Virus record (IMG/VR): IMGVR_UViG_3300025018_000098
Span: 64,001 to 128,000 of that record
From: a virus
Length of the DNA stretch: 64,000 bases
Direction: 5' to 3' (one strand)
Positions 4,404 through 46,409 of this stretch are shown here, one piece after another. The position numbers and the translations under genes were made by a program. A model generated the notes under the pieces. The model made no database searches. It had not been told where the DNA came from and was given only the letters and a program-made list of their open reading frames with translations. Each line of letters opens with the position of its first letter. The stretch's first letter is position 1.

Positions 4404-7400
4404 CTGCTCCTCAAGCCGGTCGTCGTGACCCGGTTCAGAAGCACGGTGCCGCTGATGAAGCGCTGGACCCGACTTCCGGTGTTTACGAAGTCCCGCACCA
4501 CGGTGGCGCGAACCCGCCTGTCGATCTCGTGATAGACGACGACGAAGACGGGCGATGTTCTCCCGACGGTGCTGGAATCCACGGCATATACAGATGTCGC
4601 ACCACTCTTTCGAAGCACGTCAATGAGGTCCCCCACCTCGAGTTCGAAGTCGGGGTCTACCGCGTCCAACGCCTTTGCGATGGCCCTTACGGACTCAGCC
4701 TCCGCAGGCCCCCCAACGTACACCCAGTTCAGGTTCACGTAGTTGGGCAATAGGTGCCGCACCAAGATCTCTTCGTTGACCACTCGGTTGAGGGTGGAGT
4801 CCGCGAAGCTCTGGATTTCGTCCACCAGCAGGGACCTATCATAGACGACACGTACGTTCTGTCGGCTCATCTGCACAGACTCGGTCGGGCTATCTGAGGA
4901 TCCTACGAGCAGGATGGTGCGGCTGATCTCTGCGTGGAGCACCTCGGCCCGGCTGTAGCTGGTCACCTCGTTGCCTGTGGACAGGCGGTAGCCATCTGAC
5001 TCGTGACCCTGGATGGTCATGGCGATCCCAGACCCGATGTTGTACTGGTCCCCGGGGGCCATGGATAGGAGCTCCACATCGATGTAGTAGAGACTCGTCT
5101 CGTCCGTGTTGTCGTTCATCTCGGTAGATGAGACGCGCTGCACATACCGTCGAATGGAGTACTGAGCATCCGCCTGTGTGGCGCTTGCCGTGTAGTTGAA
5201 CAGCTCCAGGATGGTGGTGTTAGTCACCTCCTGGATGACGTACACCTCGGCGTCTGGGTGCTGGTTCGTGCCTGCGCTCAATCCGAGTGCCGCGAGGCCC
5301 GTGCTCGTATCCAAGACGGTGAGCTCGTCGTCGACCACAAGGGTGAGCTCGTCTGACACCGAGATCGTAGCGATCTCCTGTCCGACTTGAGCATTGATGT
5401 AGTCCCTCAAGTCGGAGAACGCTGTGTAGTCCGTAGGGAAGTTGATCGTGATCGTTGGGTTGTCTCGTCCGATCCGAAGAACCAGGCTCAAACCGCTAAC
5501 AAGCACAGGTGATGTGAGGGCCGCGGAGACGACAGGGATGAACTTCAGCTCCAACAAGTCCCCGGCCTGAATACCCAAGGCAAAGAAGTCCGCGTCGGCA
5601 TCCACGAAGGTGCCTGTGGCGATCGTGCTGCTTCCGGTACGGGGCAGCACTGTGGATGGCGGGGCGGGCACTAGGGTGCGCTGCAGGTCCGGGTCCGGGC
5701 GGTATACCAATGTCGCCCCATCGACCAGCGTCTCAAATCGAGTGGTGGCGTAGAGGAAGTTGGCGCTCGTGGGATCCAGGAAGTACACCCGAGCAGACCC
5801 AATCGAAGGGCGTCCTATGCGGATACGCGCCCCCACCTCGGGCAGCAGTGGGGTCATCTCGTAGGGCAGGAACGTGTTGGGGGGTCCGAAGGGTCCCGCA
5901 CCCACCTTGACCACATCATCAATGTCCTGTGCTGTACTTCCCCACGGGACACCCGCCAGGTCTGACGCAACAAGGACTCGATCCGACCCTGTGTTGTTCC
6001 CGGACACGAACTCGATCAAGTCGCCTAGTCGAACCCGCAGACTCGCAGCTCCTGCAGGAGGCAGCACACGGACATCCGCGTTGGAGCTCGGGCGCAGAGG
6101 GCTAGAGCTCCAACCCAGGGGAGTCCCGTCTGTAGCGCTTGCCAATAGCACGTAGGCTGAGGTGACCCCGACGTAGTCTTGGCCGTTGTACGTCAGAACG
6201 ACCGCTCGAGCGTAGTCCGTGAAGGGGTTCCCCCCTACGGTGGACCCGTTGATTTCGGACGCAATCTGGGCCGCGGTACGCGCACCAGAAGTCAGCGGGA
6301 CAGATGCAGTGCCTAGTGACGCCAAGTACCTCGCCGCGGGGTTGCGGAAGACCAAGGACAGCGTGTTGCCCACGCCAATGGTGTACCCGGCAGTGGTTGT
6401 TGGAACACCAGAGGACACAAGCCCGATGACTGCGCCTCCGTCGTACAAGAAGCCAGAGCTCTCGTTTTGGAAGGACTTGGTGATGGCCACGACTGGGTCC
6501 CGGTAGGGGATCTTGGTACCTACGGGAGCTCCGGTGGTGTCCAGCAGCTCCATCGCCGTGACGCGTACCACCGGGGTAGCCACAGATTCACTTGCCCGGA
6601 ATAGCTGAAACACAATACCGCTGCCCGTTCGCGGGAGCTCAGGGTTCACCGTCAACGTCACGGCTGCGACCGAGATGACCGTGTAGTCCCCCCCTGCAGC
6701 GTCGTCCTGGACACGAAGAACATCGCCCGACTGCACATTGGCATCGATGAAGTTGGTGCTGCCCAGTGTAGTCACGATGGTGCTGCCTGCCGCAATGACG
6801 AGGTCAGCCCCTTCGGTCTTGATCTCCTTGGGCTCCGTCAGCTCGGTGTCGATCTCATCGACCACACGCCAACTCAAGTTCGACTGAGTCCCGCTCATGT
6901 CGGCTTCAATCAGCAGGGCCCCAGCACTCACCAAGTAGATGCGGTATGACCCGGCGTCTACACCCTCCTCCAGGATGACGGACATGCCCGCACGAACACC
7001 GAGGGCGACGAGGTCCCCGCCAGGCACGTCATTGACCGTGAGGACGTTTGAGCTCGCCACCGTCTCAACGTCGAACCCCCGGGCTAGCGGACTCTCATCA
7101 GTCAGCGACGTGATCTGTGCTGACTCCTCTTGGAAGCCTCCGGCCACGTAGACGTCCGTTTTGCCGCCGATGTGGACAGTGTCGTCCTCGAGCACTAGCT
7201 GCCCGTCTACCGTGTCCGGAAGGGTGATACCCCCAGGGATATCCGATACGGTGAGCCTCTTCCGACGCAAGGCCCAAGACACCCCGGAGAGGCCGATGGG
7301 AAGGTCATCCTCAATAAGAACCTGTGTCGCTGAGAGTACGGACACGATTCGAAAGTCTCGGTAGACGAACGTACCATCCACGAAGGACATCGACAGGTAG

Positions 7401-8416
7401 AAGGGCCCTGGGTCAGAACCTACAGAGGCCACTCGAGTGGTAAACATCCCTGTCGCGGATTCTACGACTCTCGTTCGAAGATCCCCATCTAGGTCATCAG
7501 GGAAGGTTGCATCATTCCCATAGGCACTGCCGAGATCGTCGTCGTCCAAGATGGTGCCCATGCCCCCGCCGCGGATAATGTCTCGACGCATCTCGGGATC
7601 TCGGAACCCGATGACCTGCAGCTTACGCAGTGAGGGAAAGTTGTCCCCCAGCTCGGAGGTGATACCTCGAGCTACCGTGAGGGTCTTGTCCCCCTGCTTG
7701 CGCTCCGTACGGCTGACAAACTCCAGCGAACCCTCTCGGGTAGTGCCATCGGCGAATCGCCGCAGGTTGGTCACTCGAGAGGACGTCGCGAAGTTGGAGA
7801 TGGATACGACCTGCCCCGAGTCGATGTTGTACTCGCTGCCACGCTTCTCGGCCGTGTAGTTGATATCGAAGTAGTACTCCGTACCCTCAATGTTGAGCAT
7901 CATCTGCTCAGCCGTGATCTGTTGAGGGAACGTGGGGAAATAGCGAAGGCCTCCTCGGGTTGTTGCCGGGTTCGCGATCGTCGCCAGCACGGAGCGAGGA
8001 GATGTGAAGTAGGCTCGAACCACCCCTCGAGCGAACCCGCCACCCTGGCGGGTCTCAAAGAAGTTCGTCATCAAGGCGTCGATCTCACCATCAGAAAGAG
8101 CATCGGCGTTCTTCAGACTGCTGCGCAACTTGATGAGCTTCACCTCACGGGCGACGGGCTCGATGAGTACCGTCATGGGCATGATGAGCGTATCGTAGAG
8201 AGCGTCCACCTCTGTGATGCCCAAGTGTGGGTACGCCTGCTGGATGCGGGTACGTACAAAGACGTCGATGTCCTCGTCGAAGGGATCCACTCCAATCCGG
8301 TCAAGGATGGGCTGGATCAAACGAGTCTGGGCATTACTCCCATCTGAGAGATCCACGTCCGGGTTCCAACGCGACACAAGATCCGTCAGGAAGGTTTTGA
8401 GGTCAGAGGCCGCCAT
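4400..8416 (-). CDS. Baseplate wedge protein, gpJ/gp6-like (1338 aa)
   Basis: The N-terminal region (DALMTNFFETRQGG..ARGVVR..F; TAEKRGSEYNI..GQV; VTNLRRFADG..RE) matches baseplate-J architecture. Confidence 0.75.
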   Translation of the reverse strand: MAASDLKTFLTDLVSRWNPDVDLSDGSNAQTRLIQPILDRIGVDPFDEDIDVFVRTRIQQAYPHLGITEVDALYDTLIMPMTVLIEPVAREVKLIKLRSSLKNADALSDGEIDALMTNFFETRQGGGFARGVVRAYFTSPRSVLATIANPATTRGGLRYFPTFPQQITAEQMMLNIEGTEYYFDINYTAEKRGSEYNIDSGQVVSISNFATSSRVTNLRRFADGTTREGSLEFVSRTERKQGDKTLTVARGITSELGDNFPSLRKLQVIGFRDPEMRRDIIRGGGMGTILDDDDLGSAYGNDATFPDDLDGDLRTRVVESATGMFTTRVASVGSDPGPFYLSMSFVDGTFVYRDFRIVSVLSATQVLIEDDLPIGLSGVSWALRRKRLTVSDIPGGITLPDTVDGQLVLEDDTVHIGGKTDVYVAGGFQEESAQITSLTDESPLARGFDVETVASSNVLTVNDVPGGDLVALGVRAGMSVILEEGVDAGSYRIYLVSAGALLIEADMSGTQSNLSWRVVDEIDTELTEPKEIKTEGADLVIAAGSTIVTTLGSTNFIDANVQSGDVLRVQDDAAGGDYTVISVAAVTLTVNPELPRTGSGIVFQLFRASESVATPVVRVTAMELLDTTGAPVGTKIPYRDPVVAITKSFQNESSGFLYDGGAVIGLVSSGVPTTTAGYTIGVGNTLSLVFRNPAARYLASLGTASVPLTSGARTAAQIASEINGSTVGGNPFTDYARAVVLTYNGQDYVGVTSAYVLLASATDGTPLGWSSSPLRPSSNADVRVLPPAGAASLRVRLGDLIEFVSGNNTGSDRVLVASDLAGVPWGSTAQDIDDVVKVGAGPFGPPNTFLPYEMTPLLPEVGARIRIGRPSIGSARVYFLDPTSANFLYATTRFETLVDGATLVYRPDPDLQRTLVPAPPSTVLPRTGSSTIATGTFVDADADFFALGIQAGDLLELKFIPVVSAALTSPVLVSGLSLVLRIGRDNPTITINFPTDYTAFSDLRDYINAQVGQEIATISVSDELTLVVDDELTVLDTSTGLAALGLSAGTNQHPDAEVYVIQEVTNTTILELFNYTASATQADAQYSIRRYVQRVSSTEMNDNTDETSLYYIDVELLSMAPGDQYNIGSGIAMTIQGHESDGYRLSTGNEVTSYSRAEVLHAEISRTILLVGSSDSPTESVQMSRQNVRVVYDRSLLVDEIQSFADSTLNRVVNEEILVRHLLPNYVNLNWVYVGGPAEAESVRAIAKALDAVDPDFELEVGDLIDVLRKSGATSVYAVDSSTVGRTSPVFVVVYHEIDRRVRATVVRDFVNTGSRVQRFISGTVLLNRVTTTGLRSS

Positions 8417-35340: not shown

Positions 35341-35792
35341 GTGTTACCTCCGGGTGTGCCGGACATCAGGCCCTGAGACACAAGACTGTTCGCGATACGT
35401 GGGTCATGCCCACCCATGAGCTTGCCCTTGGCGGCGTCAACCTCGTAACGCTTCTGACCCACCAGGGGGAACGACGTGATGTCCACACCGGCCTTGAGGC
35501 TGTTCAGCACCTGCTCCGTCAAGATCCGCTGGGCGACGCGGACGTTGCCTCTCAGCGTGATGCGCCAGTTGTACTTGATCTGCCCACCGATCGTGCGCAG
35601 ATGCTTGCTGACGTCGGCAGACCACTGCTCAGCATCCTCCGCGATGGGGAGGAACTCCTGCATCAAGGTGCGCCATCGAGTAGAAACCTGCTCTTCGAGG
35701 CTCAGGCGCAGATGCAGAGTAAGTCCGTCCGACTCCTTGCTCGCCTTGATGACCGTGATGCCGATCTTGTTCAATGCTTGGTCGAGTCTCAT
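35337..35792 (-). CDS. Hypothetical protein
   Basis: Coupled ORF. Confidence 0.6.
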   Translation of the reverse strand: MRLDQALNKIGITVIKASKESDGLTLHLRLSLEEQVSTRWRTLMQEFLPIAEDAEQWSADVSKHLRTIGGQIKYNWRITLRGNVRVAQRILTEQVLNSLKAGVDITSFPLVGQKRYEVDAAKGKLMGGHDPRIANSLVSQGLMSGTPGGNT

Positions 35793-35793
35793 T

Positions 35794-36306
35794 TCACACT
35801 CCCATGTCGATGACTACGCCACGGACTACGTTGCTCAGAAGTGCACCGCCTGCAGTACCCGTGAGCACGATACGGCCTGGTCCATACTTCTCGTTCTTGT
35901 ACAGCACGACATCGACACCAAGTACCTTCTCGACGTTGTGATCAAACCCCAACCAGGCAGAGAAGAGCTCAATGTCCTGAACTAGGATGTGACTTGGCAC
36001 GAGACGCAGGCTGCTGACCTGCTGAGAGGCGCGCACCAAGGTGATGTACGGGTTCTCTGCGGGATCGAACTCGAGGGCGACGAGCTCGATGCTTTCGAGA
36101 AGAGCATTCGTGTCGAAGACGGCCTCTTCTTGGAGCTCCGGAGGCACAACGGCCTCACCCTCATCAACAGTGCGCCAGGTGACGACGCTGTCTGGGGTCA
36201 CCTCGAGCTTGACCACGTTGTTCAGGGCGAGGACTCGTCGGATGTAGTCCAAGATCCCGTCCATCGACTGAGGTAGCGCGGCTTCATGTTTTCGGAGGCT
36301 AGGCAT
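35794..36306 (-). CDS. Hypothetical protein
   Basis: ORF within the operon. Confidence 0.6.
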   Translation of the reverse strand: MPSLRKHEAALPQSMDGILDYIRRVLALNNVVKLEVTPDSVVTWRTVDEGEAVVPPELQEEAVFDTNALLESIELVALEFDPAENPYITLVRASQQVSSLRLVPSHILVQDIELFSAWLGFDHNVEKVLGVDVVLYKNEKYGPGRIVLTGTAGGALLSNVVRGVVIDMGV

Positions 36307-36517
36307 CAGACCCTCGCAGTGCTTCTAAGATGGTGTCCCGCTGTTGTTGCTTCCCCGTGCTCCGCCTGCGAGACACAGAACGCTTGAGCGTCCCTACAGC
36401 CTCGGCAAGGACGTCTGATGCACTCATGCCCTTCTCCTCAGCGTACTCCGTAACGAAGTCCGCCAGGTGCATGGGAAGCCGCGTAGCGAACGGCTTTGAT
36501 TTAGGGATCCGGGCCAT
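36299..36517 (-). CDS. Ribbon-helix-helix (CopG/Arc-like) DNA-binding protein
   Basis: PFATRLPMHLADFVTEYAEEKGMSASDVLAEAV fits the beta-strand / helix / G-x-S / helix pattern. Confidence 0.7.
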   Translation of the reverse strand: MARIPKSKPFATRLPMHLADFVTEYAEEKGMSASDVLAEAVGTLKRSVSRRRSTGKQQQRDTILEALRGSDA

Positions 36518-36537
36518 GTTTACGTTTACAGTAAACG
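36518..36537. promoter_or_regulatory. Putative RHH operator (palindrome CGTTTAC-A-GTAAACG plus an extra GTTTAC half-site)
   Basis: Abuts the ATG of the RHH gene. Confidence 0.6.
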
Positions 36538-36553
36538 CACCGGATCCACTACG

Positions 36554-36823
36554 TCAAGCCGATTCGTCCTGTTGAATCTGCCTCAAACCATCGAGGAACT
36601 CGCGGAGCCCTGAAAAGCCGGGGAAGATCTCTGTAAACCGTCTCACTACAAAGTCATGGGCGGCGTCCAGATCGGCATCGCTAGGGGTGAGCCCCCCGAG
36701 GAACACCGCGGTGTGTAGTTCCTCTTCAATCGTGGACTTCAGCGCTGGGTTGGTCGCCAACCAGAAAGGCAGCCATGTCCACGTGATCTCAACCACACCA
36801 TCTCGTTCTTGTACCAGCCGCAT
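36554..36823 (-). CDS. Hypothetical protein
   Basis: TGATG coupling at 36823 (MRLVQERDG...). Confidence 0.55.
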   Translation of the reverse strand: MRLVQERDGVVEITWTWLPFWLATNPALKSTIEEELHTAVFLGGLTPSDADLDAAHDFVVRRFTEIFPGFSGLREFLDGLRQIQQDESA

Positions 36824-38490
36824 CAAAGCCCTCGAACTGTTGCCTGCATGAGCCAAGCCGTGGCATCCGTACGATCATCCGCATGGGTCCAGTCTCGCTC
36901 AATGGTGAACCAGAATGGCTTATCTGCGACAAGTCCTGCAAGCGTAATCGGCACCTCGTACATCGTGTTGCGCGCCGTGAAGGCAACGCTGGCGTCGATG
37001 ATGTTCGGAGGCATGACGTAGGGGGACACGCTGCCGTACCGAACACGGAAGCGGGCAAGGTCATCGCCGGAGCCATCGCTCTCCGCGGTGAGGTAGAGGC
37101 GCAAGACCGGACTGGACACCCCGGTGTACGCTTGGAACCAAGGTCGCATGAAGCGCCCACCTGCGCTGACCACGAAGTTGCGGATGTACCCCGTCGTGGC
37201 GTTGGCGTCGTGTACACCGAACTGGGCGTAGAGCTCGTTGGACAGCGGTGCGGCTCCCGCGGCGTCCGCAACGCTCAGGTTGGGGGAGGTCAGGTCGTTG
37301 TGATTCCAGTACACATCGTCGGTCTGTGTTCGGTTCACAACCAGGCCCGTGTTTTGCCAGCCTCGTAGGTCCTGGAAGGAGGCGCCCAAGGGGTTGGCAG
37401 CACTTGTGAGGGGGGAGAGTCCAGTCCTTCCTGTAACAATGGCCAAGCCTCCGAGTGGTTTGTACAACACACCCCCACCCTTGTAGTCGGTGTCTCCCGT
37501 GTCCGAGTAGAACCCATCGAAGGTGAGCCCGTCGAATCCACCGGCACCTCCAGTGAGGATCATGGCCCGGGAGTACGTGAAGACCTGCGTAGGAGCACTC
37601 GCCAGAGCTAGGCTCTGCGTGTACCGAATGTCCCCGCCTGCGCTGTTGAGGGCCAGGACCCCGGCGCTGGCCAAGGAGAAGTCCCCGGCAGGCCCAGTTC
37701 CGACCTTCGTGAACCCTTGCGCGGCCGGATCCGTGCCGAACCGAGCGTCATACTCGATGACGCCCTGTACTCGGTCGAAGGGGATACCTCGTACCGCGCT
37801 CTGCTGTGGCTGCACGCTGTTGGTCTTGTACTTCCAGGCATGTTCTACCCAAAAGGCCGGAGCACCGTTGAGGTCGGCATCGCTGGGGTTGAGTGTGATC
37901 ACGGTGTTCTCCAGATATACGCTACCGAGCTCGAGCTCGTAGCCTGTGCATGTGTTGACGAGGGTGACTTCATAGATGCCGTCTTCAGACACGACTGGCA
38001 GGGGGGCACTGTACCGGGTGTCCGCAACCAGACCAGCCCCTGGTGTAGGTACTGGCCCCTCTAACGGGATACTCGAGGTCAGTACCGGTTGTAGCGGACC
38101 AACATCCCTCTTGACGTCCTGCAGGAACACCTCTCCGAAGGGGCCCTCGAAGCGTACATAAAGACATGCCGCATCTACATCCGCAGTACTAGGGATGTAG
38201 ATGCGAGAGCCTGCCCGGTACCCGCCCAGGAAGGCGCCCGTGACTAGGGTGCGTTGAGATCGCCTACGCTGGCAGCTCTCACACGTGATGGAGGCCTCGA
38301 CGATGGGTGTAGTCACGCTGAAGAGGCCATACTCCCCAACACCCAGCCCTGCCCCGAGGGAGCCTCCGAGCGGAGTTGCCCCAAAGCCACCCCCAGTGTC
38401 GTACAAGAACCACTGCGAGACGGTAGTTGTGCTCGTGGCTCTGGACTCTCTGAAGCGACGGTAGCCGCAGGTGCAGCGCTCGTTGGCCAT
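36823..38490 (-). CDS. Probable structural protein with N-terminal Cys pairs (555 aa)
   Basis: CTC...CESC and a beta-rich body. TGATG-coupled to the upstream gene. Confidence 0.55.
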   Translation of the reverse strand: MANERCTCGYRRFRESRATSTTTVSQWFLYDTGGGFGATPLGGSLGAGLGVGEYGLFSVTTPIVEASITCESCQRRRSQRTLVTGAFLGGYRAGSRIYIPSTADVDAACLYVRFEGPFGEVFLQDVKRDVGPLQPVLTSSIPLEGPVPTPGAGLVADTRYSAPLPVVSEDGIYEVTLVNTCTGYELELGSVYLENTVITLNPSDADLNGAPAFWVEHAWKYKTNSVQPQQSAVRGIPFDRVQGVIEYDARFGTDPAAQGFTKVGTGPAGDFSLASAGVLALNSAGGDIRYTQSLALASAPTQVFTYSRAMILTGGAGGFDGLTFDGFYSDTGDTDYKGGGVLYKPLGGLAIVTGRTGLSPLTSAANPLGASFQDLRGWQNTGLVVNRTQTDDVYWNHNDLTSPNLSVADAAGAAPLSNELYAQFGVHDANATTGYIRNFVVSAGGRFMRPWFQAYTGVSSPVLRLYLTAESDGSGDDLARFRVRYGSVSPYVMPPNIIDASVAFTARNTMYEVPITLAGLVADKPFWFTIERDWTHADDRTDATAWLMQATVRGL

Positions 38491-38882
38491 CAGCGTGTGT
38501 CCTTGAGCAAGTTGATGAGCGTCGTGATGAAGCCTGCAAAGGCTGCGATCACCGCCACGACCACAGTGGCTAGTGTGCGGTACTTGGCGCTGTCCCGCTG
38601 AACCCCGGCCACCTCGCCCGCGGCGCTGAGCTCGAGGGCTCGGACCTTGGTGGTGTCCTTCTCGGAGTTCCGCTCCTGAGTATCGATCCTGTGCATGAGC
38701 AGCGTCAGCTTCTTCTCGTTCTCGTGGACGGACGTAGACACAGCTGTAACGGCAGCCCGAACCTCTCCAATGGTTCGGTCATTCTGCTCCAGGAGCATGT
38801 TCAGGCTGGCCACAGCGAGGGTGAGGTCGCTCCGCAACTGATTGACCTCCTTGGCCAGCTCCTTGTAGTCCTCGGGGCTCAT
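38490..38882 (-). CDS. Coiled-coil protein with a C-terminal TM helix (holin/XhlA-like topology)
   Basis: Heptad N-terminus and a hydrophobic helix (TLATVVVAVIAAFAGFITTLINLL). Confidence 0.55.
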   Translation of the reverse strand: MSPEDYKELAKEVNQLRSDLTLAVASLNMLLEQNDRTIGEVRAAVTAVSTSVHENEKKLTLLMHRIDTQERNSEKDTTKVRALELSAAGEVAGVQRDSAKYRTLATVVVAVIAAFAGFITTLINLLKDTR

Positions 38883-39652
38883 GACGTGCCCTCCTTACGA
38901 CGAATGATGTCGTACAGATTCCCTCGAGCCTCTGCCGCACTTGTGGGCGGGGCAATATCTTGCGTGATTCGCGTCATGTTCTTCGTAGCCAAGTCCTGCA
39001 CAGAGCTTGTCCGGGCCCTGCGCTCGCCGCGTAGTGTACTTCGTATGTCCTTGAGCACCCCATCGATGCCGTACTTCTCTGCAAGAGCCTCAAAGGGTTC
39101 GATGTGGCTTCGAGCACTCCTGTGTATGTACGTGTCCACCTCGGCTAGGTACTCCACGATCTTCAAGAGGTGGCCCCGGAGCAGGGCAAGCGCCGGGTCC
39201 TCCACAGTTGGGGTCTCCTGCATCATCCGCAGAGACTCCTGGGTCAACCCTTGTGTGACCTCCCGATTCTGGTTGCGGCGGATCGACATCATAATGGTGC
39301 GCTCGAGCGCCTGACCCTGGATCTCATTCTTGATGAGGTAGTCCTGCGCACCAAGAGAGATGCACCTCGAGGCTGTACCCATGTCGTCGTACCCGGTTGT
39401 GACAATCACGACAGCAGAGGGGTACTTGTGCAGGAAGGTCACCGCAGTATCGATGCCCATTGAATCTGGCAGTGTGAGGTCCAGCAGCACCACATCGATG
39501 GGTTGGGTATCCATGACCAACAAAGCAGAGCTCAGGTACTCTGTGTGGGTCACCTCAAACTGATACTGCGTCGACTTACTCAACAGGCGCTTGAAGTAGA
39601 CTGTGTCTCCTTCATTGTCCTCAACTAGAAGTACCCGAATGGCTGTATTCAT
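38879..39652 (-). CDS. Response regulator: REC domain plus an unrecognised ~130-aa helical output
   Basis: VLLVEDN, DVVLLDLTLPDS (phospho-Asp), IVTTG and GAQDYLIK. Confidence 0.85.
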   Translation of the reverse strand: MNTAIRVLLVEDNEGDTVYFKRLLSKSTQYQFEVTHTEYLSSALLVMDTQPIDVVLLDLTLPDSMGIDTAVTFLHKYPSAVVIVTTGYDDMGTASRCISLGAQDYLIKNEIQGQALERTIMMSIRRNQNREVTQGLTQESLRMMQETPTVEDPALALLRGHLLKIVEYLAEVDTYIHRSARSHIEPFEALAEKYGIDGVLKDIRSTLRGERRARTSSVQDLATKNMTRITQDIAPPTSAAEARGNLYDIIRRKEGTS

Positions 39653-40077
39653 GATGCGATCTCGGCAAACTCAAACCAGTGCCTGTAGATAGTACCTGCC
39701 AGCTGCCTAAATGTCTCTGGGTCCCCTGGCTTCACCATGTAGCAGTTGGCGCTCATGTCGTAGGCCACCAGTATGTCCTCGTGCGCTCGAGAGCTCGTCA
39801 GGATGAGGACAGGTATGCGGCGCAGTACAGGGTCTCGTTTGATCTCCGCTAAAACGTCCTGCCCGGAACGCAGAGGCAAGTTGAGATCAAGTAGGATGAG
39901 GTCTGGTTGCGGCTCCTTGGGGTCCCGAAGATATTCTAGTGCCAAGACCCCGTTTTCGACAGAATGGATGTGTGCCTGCTGGGTGATCCTGTTGAACGCG
40001 CGCCGAGTCAGTACAACATCACCTGGGTTGTCCTCAACAAGTAGTATCCGTCGTAGTTTGGGGGGAGTCGAAGTCAC
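39649..40077 (-). CDS. Single-domain response regulator, Rcp1-like
   Basis: ILLVEDNPGD, PDLILLDLNLP, IPVLILTSS and ANCYMVKP. Confidence 0.9.
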   Translation of the reverse strand: MTSTPPKLRRILLVEDNPGDVVLTRRAFNRITQQAHIHSVENGVLALEYLRDPKEPQPDLILLDLNLPLRSGQDVLAEIKRDPVLRRIPVLILTSSRAHEDILVAYDMSANCYMVKPGDPETFRQLAGTIYRHWFEFAEIAS

Positions 40078-41515
40078 GGGGCGGCCCTTCTGGCTTCATA
40101 AGAGTGAATGTGAACGTCGTTCCTACGTTCGGGACGGAGTCTACGCGAATGGTGCCTCCATGTCGCTCCACAATCTTCTTGCAGATGGCGAGACCGATGC
40201 CGGTGCCTCGCTTCGTACTGCTTAGTCGCTGAAAGATCATGAACACCTTGTCAGCGTAGGCCATATCGAAGCCTTCGCCGTTATCCTGCACGGTAATCGT
40301 CCAGTTATCCCCTGTGTCCACACAGTTGATGAACACCTCAGGGTCTTGATCCTTTGAACGGAACTTGATCGCGTTGCCAATGAGGTTCTGGAACAGCAGG
40401 GTCAGCATCATCTGATCGGAGAACACCGCGGGCATTGGACCCATGTGCACTTTCGCGTTCCGCTCCTCAAGGAACGTGTCCAAGTTGGCCAGCGCTCCAT
40501 CAATGGCCTCGGACGCTAATGCCCACTGAAAGGTCTCCTCGCGCCCTACTCGAGAGAACGCGAGCAATCCTCGGATCATGGCCCGCATCCGAGAGGCCCC
40601 GCCCACCATGAAGTCTAGGTACTGCCTACCCTCTGTACTGAACACATCCCCATAATCCTCCTCGAGAATCTTGGCGAAGTTTATGATCATTCGAAGAGGT
40701 TCCTGTAGGTCGTGCGATGCCACGTAGGCAAAGCTCTCAAGGTCTTCATTCGAGCGCTTCAGGTCCTCTGCCTGTCGGGCGAGCCTCGAGTCCACAGTCA
40801 TCTGGTTTGTGATGTCCATACACACACCAAGAAAGTGGTGGGCCTCCCCCTTCCGGTACACGATCTCACCCCGAGCCGCAATAAACCGCCCACCGTTCGT
40901 ACGGTAAGTCACTCGGTACGGATGGTCTTCGCTCTTCTTAGCTAGTTCGATGGCGTCCCGAATGACCTCGTGGTCGTCCGAGTGAACATGTTTCCAGAAC
41001 TCATCGATCTTCCCGCTGAACGTCTCGGGGTCTGCATCAAACATCTCCATCATCTGGGGATCCCAAACTAGAGCATCTGTGGCAAACTCCCAGCGCCAAA
41101 CACCGGCCTTTGCTGCGTCTAGGGCCAGGCGGAGATGTTGCTCGCTCCTCGCGAGCTTTTGGTAGGCGAGGTACTCCTCCGTGGCATCCTCCAGCATCAC
41201 AGAAGCGGTTCGGGGACGGACCCAGGTTATGTACGTCCGATAGACCCGCCCACGCAGGCTCACCGATATGATGTCTGGCTGCCCTCCTCGGGCAGCCTCA
41301 GCGACCTCATCTGCCAGATTGGAGGCACCCAGCAGCGGCAGCGGGATGTCGCCTATCGACGCACCCACGTATTGGCGGAGGTCCGTGCCGTCCAACGCCT
41401 TGTTGTTGGCCCACAGCAATACGAGCTCACGGGAGGAGCTCGTATCGTTTGGCAGCTCCCAAACTGTAGTGGCCAGCGGCAGCCGCTGGATCACAGCGTT
41501 GAGTAAGTGGGGCAC
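40034..41515 (-). CDS. Cytoplasmic PAS-domain sensor histidine kinase with a Cph1-type kinase module
   Basis: PAS (LRLALDAAKAGVWRW..), H-box FAYVASHDLQEPLR, N-box QNLIGNAIKF, G1 DNGEG and G2 GTGIGLAICKKIVERHGG. No TM helix. The start is either GTG 41515 (TAGTG overlap) or ATG 41530. Confidence 0.9.
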   Translation of the reverse strand: MPHLLNAVIQRLPLATTVWELPNDTSSSRELVLLWANNKALDGTDLRQYVGASIGDIPLPLLGASNLADEVAEAARGGQPDIISVSLRGRVYRTYITWVRPRTASVMLEDATEEYLAYQKLARSEQHLRLALDAAKAGVWRWEFATDALVWDPQMMEMFDADPETFSGKIDEFWKHVHSDDHEVIRDAIELAKKSEDHPYRVTYRTNGGRFIAARGEIVYRKGEAHHFLGVCMDITNQMTVDSRLARQAEDLKRSNEDLESFAYVASHDLQEPLRMIINFAKILEEDYGDVFSTEGRQYLDFMVGGASRMRAMIRGLLAFSRVGREETFQWALASEAIDGALANLDTFLEERNAKVHMGPMPAVFSDQMMLTLLFQNLIGNAIKFRSKDQDPEVFINCVDTGDNWTITVQDNGEGFDMAYADKVFMIFQRLSSTKRGTGIGLAICKKIVERHGGTIRVDSVPNVGTTFTFTLMKPEGPPRDFDSPQTTTDTTC

Positions 41516-42210
41516 TAGGCGCCGGCCCATTCCTGAGAGATGTACGCGGGGACGTCTGCGTCATACGGGCCATCGTAGACGTAGCCCGCAATCCAGTCGC
41601 CGTTCATCGGGTAAAACGCACCGTTGGTCGCGCCGAGCGTCAGCGGCATGTTTGCCTGAAACGTGGAGCCGCCTTGAGCTTTCGGGTATGTCCCTGTCGG
41701 ATCGCGTAGCGTCATGGTACCGCCTGCGATCGTCTCCAACGAGAACTGAAACAGGGAGCCCATGTACATCGGTATGCCCAAGAAGCTATTGGGCGACGCT
41801 ACCGAGTATGGGACGTACTCGTTGCCCGTGGTCCATGCACCTAGCCAATGCGGCCCACCACCAAAAATGGCGCGGTAGTTCGTCGACACGTTGTCCATCT
41901 GACCCACAAAGTAGTAGGTGCGCGTGCCCCCAACCACTGCCGGTGTGATGCTGAAGTTGGCGTTATAGAGACGCCTGCCCCCAGCGAACCGAATCGCGGT
42001 ATGACCGCCGATGGTCGAGATTGTCGGGCGCGTCGACGGACTGGTCATCGTGTAGCCGTTGCCGCTGACATCAGGGACCGAGTCCACGTCGCCAGAAACA
42101 AGCACGGCATCACGTGCTTCCCAGCCGCCGCGAAGGTCCGTAGTCGGTAGAGTGAGCGCGGGCGCGCCGCTCACCCCCGCCGCAGCGATAGCTCCTACGC
42201 TCGACAACAT
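41515..42210 (-). CDS. Concanavalin/LamG-like tail-associated protein (231 aa)
   Basis: Start at the TGATG overlap, 42210. WEARD...DVSGNGYTMT..TRPT...AIRF pattern. Confidence 0.6.
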   Translation of the reverse strand: MLSSVGAIAAAGVSGAPALTLPTTDLRGGWEARDAVLVSGDVDSVPDVSGNGYTMTSPSTRPTISTIGGHTAIRFAGGRRLYNANFSITPAVVGGTRTYYFVGQMDNVSTNYRAIFGGGPHWLGAWTTGNEYVPYSVASPNSFLGIPMYMGSLFQFSLETIAGGTMTLRDPTGTYPKAQGGSTFQANMPLTLGATNGAFYPMNGDWIAGYVYDGPYDADVPAYISQEWAGA

Positions 42211-44057
42211 CACGCGATGACTCCGGCCGCCCACGCCTCGGTGGCGCTCAGCTTGGTGATGGTGACCCCTGCGTAGTCCGCAGCAGCGTCGATGGTGCAT
42301 TCGCCAGCGGTGGGCGTGTCTGCGCTGGGGCCGACAATGGCGAGCCCCCCGGACCCGTCGATTATACCCTCGTACGTGGCGTCGCCGGGCTTGATGACCA
42401 GCGCGTTGAAGCCATCTCGCAGGTCGTGGGCGACCGTCATGACGATATCTGCACCCGCCGTCGCGGTGTCGAGGATAAACGTCTTGCCGCTGTCTGCGTC
42501 TGTGAAGGCGCGCGATGCTGTGATGGTCACGATCTCGACGAACCGGCTCACCATGGGCGGGACGTTCAGCAGCTGGAGCCGGTTTCCTTCGACCACCCAC
42601 AGAACCTGAACCGTTCCTGTTGAGGGCTCCGTAGCCGTGTAATACGGCGCGACAGACGACGACCAGTACTGGGCGCCGTCTGTAAGGCCGTGGCCGCCTA
42701 CCAGCTCGTGGAAGCCTTGGAGTTGGATCACGAACTCGTTCGCATCTACCACTTCGACCACGAAGGCTTGCTTGGTGTGTGCCGGCGTGGACAGGTCAGC
42801 AGTCACCCAGGTCCCTGCGTTGTAATAGACCGGGATTGGGATCCCCGACGACAGCGTGAAGCCGTGGGCACCCTGAAAGACGGTCTGCTGCGACGTACCT
42901 GGCACGTAGTCGGACAAGGTAGATGGCACCCCGTACCGGTTCACCGAGACCGTACCGCTGTACGCCGCCTGCGTGCCGCCACCAACAGGGCAAGCCGTCA
43001 TATACTGAATCGTTAAAGTCCCGTTCCCGGTCACTATGTTGTCTGCGAAAGCGGACCCGACCAACCGCACAACGACGTCTATGCCAACGCCGATGTCCAT
43101 GACCTCCCCGCTGAAGGCGGCGATGGTCGAGTGGCTCTCAGTGATGTTGAGGTTCGCCTGCACGTCCATCAAGAGGCGCGTGCCGTCTACGCTGACCAGG
43201 GTGGTATCCACCAGCGTCAGGGTGCTCTCCTCATCGTAGACCAGCGGCGTGACCACCGCAGGCCCCGCGACAGATCCGGCGTACAGGAACAGACTCTTGA
43301 CCCCAGCCAAGTTTGTGAACACGCAGTTTTCTGCGAACCCCATGAAGTTCGAGTCCACGACGCCGAAGGTGCCGAGCAACGTGATTCCGCGCATGTCCCA
43401 GGTACCTGTCGGGAAGTCATCATTCGTGACCTTCACCGCAAGTGTGCCGACCGGGCTCACCCGCACCGCGTTGTACGCCTCCTCGAACGTGGCATAGCGA
43501 CCCACAGAGGCATCGGTGGCTTGAAGCGGATCCCACTCAGCGCTCGAGGCACCACCACCACTGTTGACCGCCACGGCCAGATCGTAGGCCCACTGGCCCC
43601 AGCCCCTCCAGTTCTGCCCGGCGGACCCGCGACCCGCCAAGTCAGCGTACACGGCGTTGTCCAAGGACTCGTCGGGGTCATTCACGCTCAGTGTTTGGCT
43701 CGCCGGAGCTCCCTCACCGAACAAGGGTGGTCGTAGCCCACTGCCTATATGGGGCACACTGGCCAGGCGCTCCGTGAACGTGATTACGCCGTTGTCCGTG
43801 GCTGTTAGACGGATACGGAAGGCGCAGAACTCCACGATATCGAGAGCAGGTCCGATCGTGACTGTGCTCCCAGTGATCGCGGAGAGCACCGCCACAGATC
43901 CTACCGCGTCTATGAGCTCCCAGATGTAGGAGACCCCGGCGCCCGGCGCTGGGTCGACAGCCTCAAGCGTAATGACCTCCCCTGAGATGAGGTCATGCCT
44001 GGATTGCCCTGCAGTTCCCGCACCAGGGGTTGCTTGATCGATACGAAAGGTGGCCAT
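42210..44057 (-). CDS. Tail fibre-like structural protein (615 aa)
   Basis: Modular beta-rich protein (AHGF..G.PVYY, HGLTDGAQYW). First gene after a class L promoter. Confidence 0.55.
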   Translation of the reverse strand: MATFRIDQATPGAGTAGQSRHDLISGEVITLEAVDPAPGAGVSYIWELIDAVGSVAVLSAITGSTVTIGPALDIVEFCAFRIRLTATDNGVITFTERLASVPHIGSGLRPPLFGEGAPASQTLSVNDPDESLDNAVYADLAGRGSAGQNWRGWGQWAYDLAVAVNSGGGASSAEWDPLQATDASVGRYATFEEAYNAVRVSPVGTLAVKVTNDDFPTGTWDMRGITLLGTFGVVDSNFMGFAENCVFTNLAGVKSLFLYAGSVAGPAVVTPLVYDEESTLTLVDTTLVSVDGTRLLMDVQANLNITESHSTIAAFSGEVMDIGVGIDVVVRLVGSAFADNIVTGNGTLTIQYMTACPVGGGTQAAYSGTVSVNRYGVPSTLSDYVPGTSQQTVFQGAHGFTLSSGIPIPVYYNAGTWVTADLSTPAHTKQAFVVEVVDANEFVIQLQGFHELVGGHGLTDGAQYWSSSVAPYYTATEPSTGTVQVLWVVEGNRLQLLNVPPMVSRFVEIVTITASRAFTDADSGKTFILDTATAGADIVMTVAHDLRDGFNALVIKPGDATYEGIIDGSGGLAIVGPSADTPTAGECTIDAAADYAGVTITKLSATEAWAAGVIA

Positions 44058-44063
44058 GTCCGG

Positions 44064-44072
44064 AGTGTACCA
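44064..44072 (-). promoter_or_regulatory. Class L promoter: TGG-TACACT, 6 nt before ATG 44057
   Basis: Minus strand reads TGGTACACT CCGGAC ATG. Confidence 0.7.
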
Positions 44073-44136
44073 CTACCTATCCGCGGGGAGGAATGCACAA
44101 AAGGGCTCTCTGCGCGCTAAGATCTACCTCTTCTGA

Positions 44137-44155
44137 CCTATGAGCAATGTGAAGG
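44137..44155 (+). promoter_or_regulatory. Class E motif CCTATGAGCAATGTGAAGG
   Basis: Upstream of ATG 44187. Confidence 0.7.
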
Positions 44156-44186
44156 AAACGGGTATTTCGCCCGTGAAAGGACCAAC

Positions 44187-44702
44187 ATGAACAAGATCAC
44201 CAAGCTACGCACCGCACTCTCTGGCATCTACCGGGAGAGCGCCGCGTACATCAAGCACCTATCTATTCGTGGGAAAGTGGTGCAGTCCCTCTACCGGGGG
44301 GCGTTCCTGCCTCTGAGCCTGGCCCATGTGCTGGTGTCCGAGGATGCAGTCAAAGACTACGCAACGGATGAACAGCGAGCCGCAGACATCCAGGTCTGGG
44401 TCATCATGAACCAGGCTCGGTTGTCAGCGAACGGATTCCCGGCCTCGTCCGACGCATGGTTGGATTATCATGGGGTACTACTGCCCCACGACGACACGGA
44501 TCCTCGGATCCTGAGGGAGCTCTACCGCTTCTTCGACGGCCCCTCGCGCTCCCCGCGAGCGTTCGTCCAGGCGTTCGTCTCGGCCATCACGGTGGCTGTC
44601 CGCATCGCCGAGGAAGAGGCGGAGTCGGTCACTGTCGATATCGAGTCGACGGATCTTAGCGACAACCGAGTCATCCTCGTGAACTTCGGCAACAAGGGTT
44701 GA
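44187..44702 (+). CDS. Hypothetical protein (171 aa), a solitary plus-strand gene
   Basis: AAGGA SD, its own class E motif, and a downstream hairpin. Confidence 0.65.
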   Translation: MNKITKLRTALSGIYRESAAYIKHLSIRGKVVQSLYRGAFLPLSLAHVLVSEDAVKDYATDEQRAADIQVWVIMNQARLSANGFPASSDAWLDYHGVLLPHDDTDPRILRELYRFFDGPSRSPRAFVQAFVSAITVAVRIAEEEAESVTVDIESTDLSDNRVILVNFGNKG

Positions 44703-44706
44703 CACA

Positions 44707-44727
44707 CAGGGGGCCCCAGCCCCCCTG
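44707..44727. terminator. GC hairpin between convergent genes
   Basis: CAGGGGG...CCCCCTG. Confidence 0.5.
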
Positions 44728-44740
44728 CGCAGTCCCTTTG

Positions 44741-45160
44741 CTATACGATGGTCTCGGGCCCTTCCCCGTCGTTGTACACGAAGAGGAGGTCGGCCGGCTT
44801 GAGCAGAATGATCCCTGCACCGAACTGATGCTGGATATGCTCGTTGGTCGCTTGCTTGTCCCGGAAGCGGAGGAAGCAGCACTTGAGCCCCACCTCGAGA
44901 TCGGGGATGGGCACAGGCTCCTCGAGGAACTTCTGACGCCCATACTTCTTGGGGATCGAGCGGATGTAACCGAACGCCAGGATGGTGGCCGTGGTGTAGA
45001 TGGACTCGATGGCCTTCTCACTGGCCTTGAAGATGAGCCCAGACGTCGTCTTGTCCGACGTCGGATCCACACGCACCAGGATGTGCTCGTTCACGAGCTG
45101 GAAGCTGCGCCCATCCTCGAAGGTACACTCGTCATATGGGTGTCGCTCAGCCATAACCAT
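44741..45160 (-). CDS. groES: GroES-like co-chaperonin
   Basis: FQLVNEHILVR...KTTSGLI...ATILAFG...LEVGLK...ILLKPADLL follows the Cpn10 pattern, though divergent. Confidence 0.7.
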   Translation of the reverse strand: MVMAERHPYDECTFEDGRSFQLVNEHILVRVDPTSDKTTSGLIFKASEKAIESIYTTATILAFGYIRSIPKKYGRQKFLEEPVPIPDLEVGLKCCFLRFRDKQATNEHIQHQFGAGIILLKPADLLFVYNDGEGPETIV

Positions 45161-45641
45161 GCTCGCTGTCCTTGAAGGGCCTGAAGTCCCGCTCTGCCGA
45201 GTAGCGCTGCTGCCTCATGGGCGGCTCAACCTCCATAGGACCGAGGGGCCGCCTGCCCTGCAGCTTCCACAGGAGCTTCTGTGTCGCCGTGTCCTCATCC
45301 TCACGATCCTGGGTGAGCTTCCTGATGGTCTCTTCTACGGCTACCTTCTTCTGGACCGCCACCTGCTTCAGCTCGGGATCCCCTACATGCACCTCAGGCT
45401 TCTCCAGCTCGCCGCCCCCTCGAATCTCATCGGAGTCGTGGGGAACCAGTGGGATACCGAAGTAGGTCTCCACATCGGCCTCTTTCGCCAAGACCCACAA
45501 CCACCCTGGAACGCGGAAGCTGGCGGGCCCGGTCCCCTCGATGACCATGTGGCCTTTGATCTCGTCGTCGAAGGCACGCCGGATGTTGCCATCTTGGTTG
45601 GTCACCGCGGCAATCCATAGGTCTCTGGGTGTGAGCTTCAT
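45147..45641 (-). CDS. Hypothetical protein
   Basis: ATGA coupling at 45641. Confidence 0.55.
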   Translation of the reverse strand: MKLTPRDLWIAAVTNQDGNIRRAFDDEIKGHMVIEGTGPASFRVPGWLWVLAKEADVETYFGIPLVPHDSDEIRGGGELEKPEVHVGDPELKQVAVQKKVAVEETIRKLTQDREDEDTATQKLLWKLQGRRPLGPMEVEPPMRQQRYSAERDFRPFKDSEHGYG

Positions 45642-46030
45642 CGAGACACCTCCTCTGGGGTCACAGGACCCCAATCATCTGAGAGCATGTCCGTCTGACT
45701 GGCGAGCCACCCGAGGACCTTCTTCCCATCTGCAGTGTGCATCATAAGGGTAGGTAGGATGGTGCTGTCCGCCAGCTGCGCCATGAGCGAGTCCATGAGC
45801 TGATCCTTCACGCCTGCATCGTGCCACCCCTTAGCGTAGCCTTGGAGCGCCTCAGTCAGGACCTTTCCGGGCACGACCCGGACCCACATCTTTTTGCCGT
45901 TCCAGCCCTTCCTGGCGATGCAGCTTCCTGTGTGCCGTGTGTAGCTGAGGGCCTTGCTAAAGCTCCAGTTGAACTCTGGAGTGACGACGGCTGTGGTCTC
46001 GCCGGTCAGCATGTGGTCGACCTCACTCAT
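45638..46030 (-). CDS. DUF2829 / Tad2-like anti-defence sponge protein
   Basis: FSKAL...IARKGWNGKKMWV...GWLASQTDMLSDDW is the DUF2829 signature. Confidence 0.8.
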   Translation of the reverse strand: MSEVDHMLTGETTAVVTPEFNWSFSKALSYTRHTGSCIARKGWNGKKMWVRVVPGKVLTEALQGYAKGWHDAGVKDQLMDSLMAQLADSTILPTLMMHTADGKKVLGWLASQTDMLSDDWGPVTPEEVSR

Positions 46031-46409
46031 CGGAGGCACCTTCATCCAACGAGAAGTCCTCGAGGGCGTTGGCCACACTAGCCTCGTCGGCCACCGCTGC
46101 AGCTGCGCCGTTGTCCAGCTTCTCCAGGTGCGCCAGGACCTGTTCCAGCATCTTCTCCGGCAACGAGCGGAGCTGGGTGCTCATCTGCTTCTCATCGGCC
46201 AAGAGGAAGATACCTGGGCGGCCGTCCGGAGTCTTCCCGAAGCGGTTGACGAGGCACATGGACTCCTTGCCCTCGCTGTTGGTGTACCGGATCGCGTACT
46301 GCTGGCACTCAGTGATGCTGAGGACCTTGTTCTTCTGCGAGTGGTACTTTGCCTTGGGCGTCTCGTAGCTCTGAATCGTTCCGTTTCCCATTGTGTCTCC
46401 TATGGCCAC
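46023..46409 (-). CDS. Hypothetical protein
   Basis: ORF within the operon (start may be the second Met). Confidence 0.55.
   Translation of the reverse strand: MAIGDTMGNGTIQSYETPKAKYHSQKNKVLSITECQQYAIRYTNSEGKESMCLVNRFGKTPDGRPGIFLLADEKQMSTQLRSLPEKMLEQVLAHLEKLDNGAAAAVADEASVANALEDFSLDEGASDE

Follow-up and report, generated by a model that had tools for sequence, protein, structure and literature searches.

We found a cassette of four overlapping genes in the genome of an uncultured phage. It encodes a soluble histidine kinase, two receiver proteins (RR1 and RR2) and a tail-anchored membrane protein. The cassette is common to several unrelated large phages, shows vertical inheritance within one phage clade and is under purifying selection. 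This suggests that phages operate their own signalling circuit. We consider it somewhat better than an even chance (roughly 0.55) that the four genes form a phage-maintained signalling module, which is expressed late and acts on a membrane event as infection draws to its end, with lysis timing as the leading candidate.

Genome and operon organization

The window analyzed here is a stretch of 64,000 nucleotides from a genome of ~169 kb. Its phage nature is clear from the IMG/VR record, which is 100% complete according to CheckV, and TerL matches phrog_675 of PHROG at 1.6e-40. In addition to the terminase, the genome encodes topoisomerase II and a fused RNA polymerase. The cassette lies in a chain of genes on the minus strand:

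44055..44070, minus strand, start-proximal motif GTACACT-N6-ATG heading the operon (pattern counts; the candidate "class L" promoter of the first-pass annotation)
42210..44057, minus strand, fibre-like protein of 615 aa, whose gene opens the operon (N-terminal conservation and C-terminal variation in relatives)
41515..42210, minus strand, 231-aa LamG/ConA-like jelly-roll protein (Atlas feature and model matches)
40034..41530, minus strand, soluble histidine kinase, 498 aa (Pfam, conserved boxes, solved relatives)
39649..40077, minus strand, RR1, stand-alone receiver of the Rcp1/RcpA type, 142 aa (Pfam, solved relatives)
38879..39652, minus strand, RR2, receiver with an all-helical output domain of ~130 aa, 257 aa (receiver from Pfam; AlphaFold)
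38490..38882, minus strand, tail-anchored coiled-coil membrane protein (same architecture after RR2 in all copies)
36823..38490, minus strand, 555-aa conserved phage protein, downstream edge of the insertion slot (homologues in relatives)
36554..36823, minus strand, 89-aa conserved phage protein, final overlapping gene of the chain (homologues in relatives)

An overlap had been claimed at every junction from 44057 to 36554, and reading the sequence bore this out. The 615-aa and 231-aa genes share one base (42210). The next junction, between the 231-aa and kinase genes, is a 16-nt overlap if the kinase starts with the ATG at 41530, or TAGTG if it starts with the GTG at 41515. The kinase and RR1 genes overlap by 44 nt, ATGA is found at both the RR1/RR2 and the RR2/membrane protein junctions, and one-base overlaps connect the membrane protein gene to the 555-aa gene and the latter to the 89-aa gene. 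Terminator-like hairpins were not in excess in the scanned region (35500–45500), with 5 observed and 5.1 in shuffles.

The pattern GTASACT-N6-RTG has seven matches in the window, compared with 0.32 expected from shuffles. Six of the seven are on the minus strand, and at least five of these six coincide with the start codons of large genes that come first in their operons. The motif ahead of the cassette operon is thus shared with other large operons. It is a candidate promoter, and the transcript may be leaderless.

The first ~160–180 residues of the 615-aa protein are 57–60% identical to the N-termini of proteins of 804–1778 aa that relatives encode at this position; the C-termini are unrelated. 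The label "fibre" can be kept on the basis of this conserved N-terminus and variable C-terminus; it draws no support from family matches, as neither Pfam nor PHROG gave one. The LamG-like assignment of the 231-aa protein is based solely on the Atlas, where it has a feature score of 0.98 to tailed-phage protein clusters and its model has a TM of 0.77–0.84 to Laminin_G_3 proteins; the Pfam search was negative. This protein is missing from six related loci and is specific to this phage among the phages compared. It is probably a fibre accessory. Homologues of the 555-aa protein, which has no family match, are present at 35–39% identity in the relatives G001, G003, G008, G017 and G018. In all five, it is followed by the homologue of the 89-aa protein (39–55% identity). 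A Tad2-like anti-defence gene lies ~1.6 kb upstream, in a neighbouring operon.

The cassette had been described as built into a virion operon. In this phage, it does have the same orientation as fibre-like genes and other conserved genes that are probably structural, and is coupled to them in translation. The cassette of locus L076 also lies within a structural module, between a major head protein (1.7e-88) on one side and phrog_772 and virion proteins on the other. However, not all phages share this arrangement. Members of the C445/G013/G014 lineage carry the cassette outside structural operons, near thymidylate synthase in C445/G013.

Histidine kinase

The kinase consists of an unassigned N-terminal domain (residues ~1–125), a PAS domain (132–240), HisKA and HATPase_c, with Pfam E-values of 3.8e-9 (PAS_3), 4.7e-9 and 9.7e-26, respectively. 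HisKA scores 36.6 bits (cut-off 26.9), which assigns it to the DHp domain of class-I kinases, and HATPase_c, the catalytic domain, scores 90.8 bits (cut-off 26.4). The His residue of the H-box (SHDLQEPLR) is invariant in all eight phage copies, in which the N, G1, F and G2 boxes (NLIGNAIKF, DNGEGF, FMIFQRL and GTGIGL) are also intact and conserved. No transmembrane (TM) segment was seen in the translation. The sensor domain is absent from three of the eight kinases; therefore, the sensed cue is not universal.

The nearest solved kinase cores are 8f71 and those of bacteriophytochromes. The core belongs to the widespread Cph1/Rcp1-type subfamily and is ~50% identical to many cellular kinases, and the best matches of the kinase outside phages have 38–54% identity. 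In a quick tree, six of the eight phage kinases cluster with short metagenomic kinases, and this group (SH-aLRT 99) is separate from 113 cellular-type kinases. The kinases of L077 and L078 are on a long branch outside it.

Receivers

RR1 matches Response_reg of Pfam at 7.3e-18 (65.2 bits). Its best solved relatives are 5te9, RcpA (1k68) and Rcp1 (1jlk/1i3c), with E-values of 1e-25 to 5e-31, and RcpA (2.7e-27) and Rcp1 (4.4e-25) are among the best three, so that RR1 is of the Rcp type. Pfam detected neither GAF nor PHY in the kinase. Therefore, RR1 is Rcp1-like yet stands outside any phytochrome system. The Asp/Asp/Thr/Lys set is intact in both receivers and is conserved over the eight phage copies (Thr/Ser in RR1). 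Since all domains and catalytic motifs are intact, the proposal that the phage owns a complete kinase and two receivers holds.

Response_reg (2e-15, residues 7–110) is the sole Pfam domain of RR2, and the AlphaFold model of the protein has a pLDDT of 87. The full-length family comprises dozens of 50%-identity clusters, of which 36 were aligned. For the tail, no match to a known fold, family, DHp domain or Atlas entry was found, and no recognisable DNA-binding or enzymatic output was found in RR2. A profile of the tail, searched against ~1,100 bacterial genomes (401 + 401 + 301), gave a single match, which was a mis-binned phage contig. The best-kept tail motif of the family is Y-L-x-[RK]-N-A-P, from which RR2 of this phage departs with YIHRSAR.

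The first-pass annotation envisaged a phosphorelay, which we do not retain. Pfam detected no Hpt family in any cassette protein at an E-value of 0.01, the hhalign probability between the RR2 tail and the DHp profile is 0.4%, and the candidate residue, His161 of RR2, is present in just 26 of the 39 proteins of its family. A His-Asp-His-Asp phosphorelay was rejected because no His-phosphotransfer domain, of either the HPt or the Spo0B/ChpT-like kind, was found between the receivers. The lack of an HPt domain indicates a branched two-component pathway instead.

The same data bear on whether the cassette serves to hijack host signalling. In that case, the kinase would phosphorylate host regulators, or RR1 and RR2 would drain host phytochrome-type kinases, so as to reprogram host physiology during infection, with the membrane protein as either an anchor or a passenger of no relevance. 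The Cph1/Rcp1-type kinase core and RR1 suit such a role; the core is from a widespread subfamily and ~50% identical to cellular kinases, and therefore cross-talk with the host is chemically plausible. The lack of a recognisable output in RR2 also fits, and phage-borne parts of host signalling have precedents in phiCDHM1 (PMC4124054) and V22 (PMC7289586). However, the kinase never occurs without the two receivers and the membrane partner, which suggests that the circuit is self-contained, and the occurrence of the cassette in lineages with differing hosts agrees poorly with adaptation to a single host pathway. We regard the hijack as unlikely.

Membrane protein

The fourth cassette gene encodes a cytoplasmic coiled coil followed by a single C-terminal TM segment. 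In all eight phage copies, a protein of this architecture comes after RR2, and its gene overlaps the RR2 stop codon. In pairwise comparison, it matches its counterparts in C445 and L075 with E-values of 3e-5 and 1e-12, respectively, and a strong AAGGAGG precedes the gene in this phage. It had been taken for a holin-like neighbour. Weak PHROG matches do occur in the family, to "hemolysin" (PHROG 1193; three of seven, best 3e-4) and "holin" (PHROG 689; two of seven, 4e-4), and these may reflect composition. Pfam returned generic coiled-coil noise alone, and no XhlA at an E-value of 0.1. No endolysin or recognised holin was found adjoining the cassette, and no lysozyme, amidase or peptidase family was detected among the scanned neighbours (a subset of genes) in this phage, L060 and L075–L078. 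We count the gene as a fourth, conserved part of the cassette and not as an adjacent lysis gene.

Distribution and inheritance

The search for the same synteny in other phages succeeded. The order kinase, RR1, RR2, membrane protein, with overlapping stops and starts, is identical in this phage (G000), in C445 (NCBI JAJDDX010000500.1) and in the IMG/VR loci L073–L078. Besides this phage, seven genomes or contigs of large phages thus carry the set, and they represent at least three genomic contexts. C445, too, is a phage, with a portal (5e-46), a tape measure and a baseplate wedge. Two 195-kb relatives, G017 and G018, carry the cassette at the same site as this phage, upstream of the 555-aa and 89-aa genes. 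It is absent from three near-complete relatives (G001, G003 and G008). In the TerL tree, G017, G018 and G000 are on a 98% branch apart from these three, and the presence of the cassette tracks one split of the terminase tree. The dN/dS values, calculated between L077 and L078, are 0.115 (kinase), 0.113 (RR1), 0.086 (RR2) and 0.146 (membrane protein), compared with 0.179 for the adjacent 555-aa gene.

A recent bacterial passenger, or a mis-assembled operon with no role in the phage, might be suspected from the three relatives that lack the cassette. The other data speak against it. Independent contigs, obtained from a hot spring, a cold spring and other aquifer samples, match the cassette with zero differences and bridge three junctions. 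Its GC3 (0.62–0.82) resembles that of the rest of the genome. A recently acquired host gene is also at odds with the identity of 38–54% at best outside phages, dN/dS of 0.09–0.15 across the cassette and the shared site in two deep relatives. On all this evidence, the cassette is neither a chimera nor a recent passenger, the outcome that the first-pass annotation had named as refuting its proposal. This explanation is extremely improbable.

The slot directly after the receptor-binding (fibre) genes is variable among close relatives. Such a location would suit a conflict module for superinfection exclusion, anti-defence or competition between phages, in which the membrane protein would block entry or signalling under phospho-control; the movement of the cassette among phage lineages and the Tad2-like gene nearby point the same way. 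However, Pfam and PHROG detected no known defence or anti-defence domain in the cassette genes, co-expression with late genes suits exclusion poorly, and deep vertical retention is less typical of conflict genes, which turn over quickly. We consider a conflict module improbable.

Discussion

In the signalling module that we favor, the soluble class-I kinase would autophosphorylate and then pass the phosphate to both receivers. RR1 would most likely shape the response, either as a second branch or by acting as a sink for phosphate. RR2 most likely acts on the membrane protein through protein contacts of its helical output domain, which is so far known from phages alone. The module would be produced alongside the fibre-like and probably structural genes; late expression is presumed from this co-production. 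A cytoplasmic cue, received through the PAS and N-terminal domains of the kinase, would be converted into the membrane event. A more specific version, tentative and on the unlikely side, is that large phages of several lineages own a phage-specific set of kinase, sink receiver, adaptor receiver with a new output domain and tail-anchored membrane effector, with which the virus itself would read the state of the infected cell and use phosphorylation to time lysis or another membrane event. Such a set would be a phage decision circuit distinct from arbitrium, quorum-sensing piracy and lysis inhibition of the T4 type.

Bacteria use two-component systems as their standard means of sensing. Phage counterparts are usually recorded as stray kinases or receivers and classed as auxiliary. 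The cassette is complete: it includes a membrane partner of its own and an output domain absent from the bacterial genomes searched. It makes information processing by lytic phages through phospho-signalling of their own directly testable. It also defines a four-protein system for biochemistry, in which both the receiver output domain and the class of tail-anchored partner are new and can be characterised. Should the module prove to time lysis, this would be a new mode of lysis control.

The cassette membrane protein resembles lysis-cassette proteins of the XhlA type (PHROG 1193) in its short coiled coil and single C-terminal TM segment. However, it is longer (130–189 aa), is always coupled to RR2 and has no adjoining endolysin or holin. 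The comparison with XhlA of PBSX and gp24.1 of SPP1 is a lead only.

The closest solved relatives of the kinase core and RR1 are the Cph1-Rcp1 and bacteriophytochrome pairs, namely Rcp1 of Synechocystis (1jlk/1i3c), RcpA of Calothrix (1k68) and the kinases 8uph and 8avv. The kinases match at E-values of 1e-30, and Rcp1 and RcpA at 1e-25 to 1e-27. The gene order, a kinase and then a stand-alone receiver, is also alike. In contrast to these pairs, the cassette is phage-encoded, lacks the PAS-GAF-PHY photosensory module, has a sensor part that is variable or missing between copies, and adds two components, a second receiver that ends in a helical tail and a tail-anchored membrane protein dedicated to the system. 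Also among the solved relatives is HK853-RR468 of Thermotoga maritima (2c2a, 3dge), a pair with a kinase of the same class (class-I HisKA) in which phosphate likewise goes to a single-domain receiver. However, it is a cellular system with a membrane-bound kinase, one receiver and no membrane partner gene.

Signalling genes are likewise found in lytic marine phages and are common to several phage families. A curli (T8SS) gene cluster of pelagiphages carries histidine kinases (PMC9599517), and phage V22 has a lone CheY-like gene, which is listed as an auxiliary metabolic gene (PMC7289586). These are single kinases or receivers that serve other functions, and a complete kinase-receiver-receiver-membrane set is not described there. 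The Clostridioides difficile myovirus phiCDHM1 also bears a histidine kinase cassette, agrB/D/C, without a response regulator; this set has diverged from its counterparts in the host, is believed to be the product of evolution within the phage, and is believed to send its signal to a host regulator (PMC4124054). Its kinase is a membrane peptide sensor and the phage is temperate with a cultured host, whereas the cassette described here combines a kinase, two receivers and a membrane partner.

Genome and operon organization

The window lies within G000, a single 168,874-bp IMG/VR record that is complete according to CheckV, and covers its bases 64001-128000. G000 encodes a large terminase (phrog_675, 1.6e-40), topoisomerase II, helicases, and a fused RNA polymerase beta/beta'; therefore, it represents a large phage. 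A single 2059-aa ORF (L006 9191-15370, minus strand; genome 27191-33370) matches PHROG families of both RNA polymerase subunits, beta and beta'; this 169-kb phage thus has a multisubunit RNA polymerase in fused form.

Eight genes on the minus strand form an unbroken chain from 44057 to 36554.

Genes of the chain, in order of transcription
42210-44057 (-), 615-aa protein
(-), 231-aa protein
40034-41530 (-), 498-aa kinase (Pfam PAS_3, HisKA, HATPase_c)
39649-40077 (-), 142-aa receiver, RR1 (Pfam Response_reg)
38879-39652 (-), 257-aa receiver with a tail, RR2 (Pfam Response_reg)
38490-38882 (-), 130-aa coiled-coil protein, single membrane helix at the C-terminus
(-), 555-aa protein
(-), 89-aa protein

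The first-pass annotation described overlaps at every junction of this chain, and the sequence bears this out. Its complete kinase and two receivers are likewise confirmed by the Pfam domains. Terminator-like hairpins were not in excess over shuffled sequence in the region scanned around the operon.

The sequence GTACACT is located six bases 5' of the ATG of the 615-aa gene. The pattern GTASACT-N6-RTG has 7 matches in the window (0.32 expected), mostly where other large operons begin.

Copies of GTASACT six bases before ATG or GTG
14656 (-)
20476 (-)
22939 (-)
27788 (-)
31588 (-)
44055 (-)
45123 (+)

At least five of the six minus-strand copies stand at the starts of large genes that lack a Shine-Dalgarno sequence. 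The motif fits a candidate phage-specific promoter that would give leaderless or near-leaderless transcripts. A scan with the sigma-70 consensus found no promoter, as would be the case for a phage that relies on a polymerase and sigma factor of its own. The operon upstream of the cassette includes a 146-aa ORF (window 45638-46078, minus strand) that matches Pfam Tad2-like (Thoeris anti-defence 2) at 1.1e-16, over the curated cut-off, and is a probable anti-defence gene.

Authenticity of the region

The sequence of the region recurs in sequencing runs of a second aquifer study, of a hot spring (2025), and of a cold spring (2019). Contigs of these other samples match the region with zero differences and span the 231-aa/kinase, kinase/RR1, and RR1/RR2 junctions, so that three junctions are bridged independently. 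Absence from relatives together with near-identity to a bacterial locus had been expected of a recent passenger or a chimeric assembly. Among 5.8 billion proteins, the best outside matches of the kinase are only 38-54% identical, and the GC3 of the cassette genes is like that of the remaining genome. Taken together, these results show that the cassette was not captured recently and is no chimera.

Distribution of the four-gene set

For the region as a whole, Megablast found no match among GenBank phages, and tblastn of RR2 against the same phages gave partial REC matches only. IMG/VR scans with single proteins (kinase, P0004, TerL) found nothing; alignment-based scans were needed for detection. 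In a scan of genome contigs with alignment A2, the matches listed covered REC only, and contig C445 was missed (described below); it is therefore silent on distribution. For proteins P0004 and P0124, a 62-kb Logan contig apparently carries both a kinase and an RR2 homologue. Full-length homologues of RR2 do exist: its profile retrieved dozens of full-length clusters (234-286 aa) from 1.84 billion representatives, and 36 of them were taken into an alignment.

One RR2 homologue is located on C445 (NCBI JAJDDX010000500.1, 183,466 bp; loci L060, L063-L072), which is filed in a Phycisphaerae MAG. This contig is a phage, with a portal (5e-46), a tape measure, a baseplate wedge, a weak tail-fibre match, DnaB, and thymidylate synthase; its filing reflects either mis-binning or a hint at the host. 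The portal contains an HNH insertion, and the 470-aa thymidylate synthase was matched in two stretches. C445 and G000 have only about six proteins in common. The C445 cassette has the same order, with 49% (core), 43%, and 37% identity to the kinase, RR1, and RR2 of G000, respectively, and the gene directly 3' of RR2 encodes a coiled-coil protein of 138 aa whose membrane helix is C-terminal.

Scanning IMG/VR with the RR2-family alignment revealed six further contigs (L073-L078), three of which are complete genomes of 186-196 kb. All six have the same four genes with the order kept and the junctions overlapping. The synteny search proposed in the first-pass annotation thus found the order kinase-RR1-RR2-membrane protein again in C445 and L073-L078. 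Because of this recurrence, the gene previously described as a holin-like neighbour is the fourth member of the module. The membrane protein family has weak PHROG matches, to a holin family in 2/7 members and to a 'hemolysin' family in 3/7, but Pfam gave coiled-coil noise only. No endolysin was found among the cassette neighbours scanned.

The genomic contexts differ. C445, G013, and G014 form a second lineage with common flanking genes and the module near thymidylate synthase. The module of L075 is in yet another context, and that of L076 lies between a scaffold/major head protein (1.7e-88) and phrog_772 / virion structural proteins.

The cassette site in related phages

The TerL alignment (A1) identified eleven IMG/VR relatives with 50-60% TerL identity, of which G001, G003, and G008 are near-complete. 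These three have no kinase homologue and no receiver over the Pfam cut-off. Synteny is kept on both sides of the slot, where a fibre-like gene is followed by a small membrane protein, then by homologues of the 555-aa and 89-aa genes and onward genes. Therefore, the place that the cassette occupies after the fibre gene is a slot with variable content. The first ~160 residues of the fibre-like protein are 57-60% identical between G000 and the relatives, and the C-terminus differs. Beyond the conserved N-terminus the gene varies, from 615 to 1778 aa, and it comprises three ORFs in G003. Swapping of the receptor-binding part usually leaves a pattern of this kind.

Slot features in G000 and its relatives, and weak receiver matches in cassette-less relatives
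Window 42210-44057; L001 3230-8566; L058 10144-12558; L059 8853-6807: fibre-like gene
L001 9246-9713; L058 12589-13026; L059 6433-6768: slot protein, N-terminal membrane helix then coiled coil
G008:C1:107564-107836; G001:C1:60594-60776; G011:C1:42841-43023: weak partial receiver-domain matches (17-23 bits, under the cut-off) in 133-139-aa ORFs of cassette-less relatives

The small protein before the 555-aa gene in the cassette-less slot has a topology that is the reverse of that of the tail-anchored protein, and the two families (A6 and A5) have no profile similarity. In L075, the tail-anchored protein is directly followed by a coiled-coil protein (7094-7882, C-terminal ~105 aa) whose membrane helix is N-terminal; both predicted types of membrane-anchored coiled-coil protein adjoin each other there.

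In G017 and G018 (loci L077 and L078), the genes after the module are homologues of the 555-aa (35%) and 89-aa (52-54%) genes; the site is the same as in G000. The TerL tree places these genomes with G000 (98% support), separate from G001, G003, and G008. One gain or one loss would explain the presence and absence of the cassette. The module has kept its site over a period in which TerL identity fell to 59%. One in-frame TGA is present within the TerL match of G001, G017, and G018 (loci L012, L182, L183), and it may lie only upstream of the true start.

The dN/dS check suggested earlier gave 0.115 for the kinase, 0.113 for RR1, 0.086 for RR2, and 0.146 for the membrane protein between L077 and L078 (dS ~0.6-0.8); the adjoining 555-aa gene gave 0.179. 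It is very unlikely that the cassette is a passenger without a role for the phage.

Kinase, receivers, and the RR2 tail

The solved proteins nearest to the kinase core are bacteriophytochrome-type kinases, and those nearest to RR1 are RcpA and Rcp1. No membrane segment is visible in the kinase sequence. All eight phage copies (G000, C445, L073-L078) retain every kinase box and the active-site residues of the receivers. The sensor is the sole variable part of the kinase: it is missing in three copies, C445 has the N-terminal domain only, L076 has PAS only, and G000, L077, and L078 have both. A quick tree built from kinase cores unites G000, C445, and L073-L076 with six short metagenomic kinases in one group (SH-aLRT 99), separate from 113 multi-PAS cellular-type kinases. 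It leaves the L077 and L078 kinases unplaced, on a long branch.

A confident AlphaFold model of RR2 (pLDDT 87) shows an all-helical tail (residues ~128-257). Foldseek with the full model returned receiver matches only and none for the tail. Modelled alone, the tail had low confidence (pLDDT 68), and VIA-align of this model gave just generic helical matches (Z up to 6.5). An Atlas search with the tail gave no usable match. The best-conserved motif of the tail family is Y-L-x-[RK]-N-A-P. Among 401 genomes of the phylum of the Phycisphaerae MAG, the sole match of the tail profile was the phage contig C445; the phyla of Paraburkholderia (401 genomes) and Scytonema (301 genomes) gave none.

The tail is unrelated to the DHp profile, and this assignment was rejected. 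An HPt reading was weakened because the candidate His, invariant in the five closest homologues, is present in 26/39 members overall. Pfam found no HPt match in the cassette proteins. The phosphorelay proposed in the first-pass annotation is therefore not supported, and the system is predicted to be a branched two-component pathway.

Proposed role and comparison with known systems

We firmly conclude that these genes constitute a phage-maintained four-gene signalling module, predicted from sequence to be functional, that moves between large-phage lineages. The kinase would be made along with the fibre/structural operon and would phosphorylate both RR1 and RR2. The target of the RR2 tail may be the tail-anchored protein, at its cytoplasmic coiled coil, and RR1 would tune the flux. 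The output would be a membrane event late in infection, possibly the timing of lysis. The pathway might instead hijack host signalling, which we consider rather unlikely, and a function in conflict or exclusion seems distinctly improbable.

The four-gene module is not described in four earlier reports of phage signalling genes. Three of them concern partial systems, namely agrBDC of phiCDHM1 (PMC4124054), pelagiphage kinases linked to curli genes (PMC9599517), and a CheY-like gene of phage V22 (PMC7289586), and the jumbo-phage survey reported just a divergent non-two-component receiver (PMC7824862).
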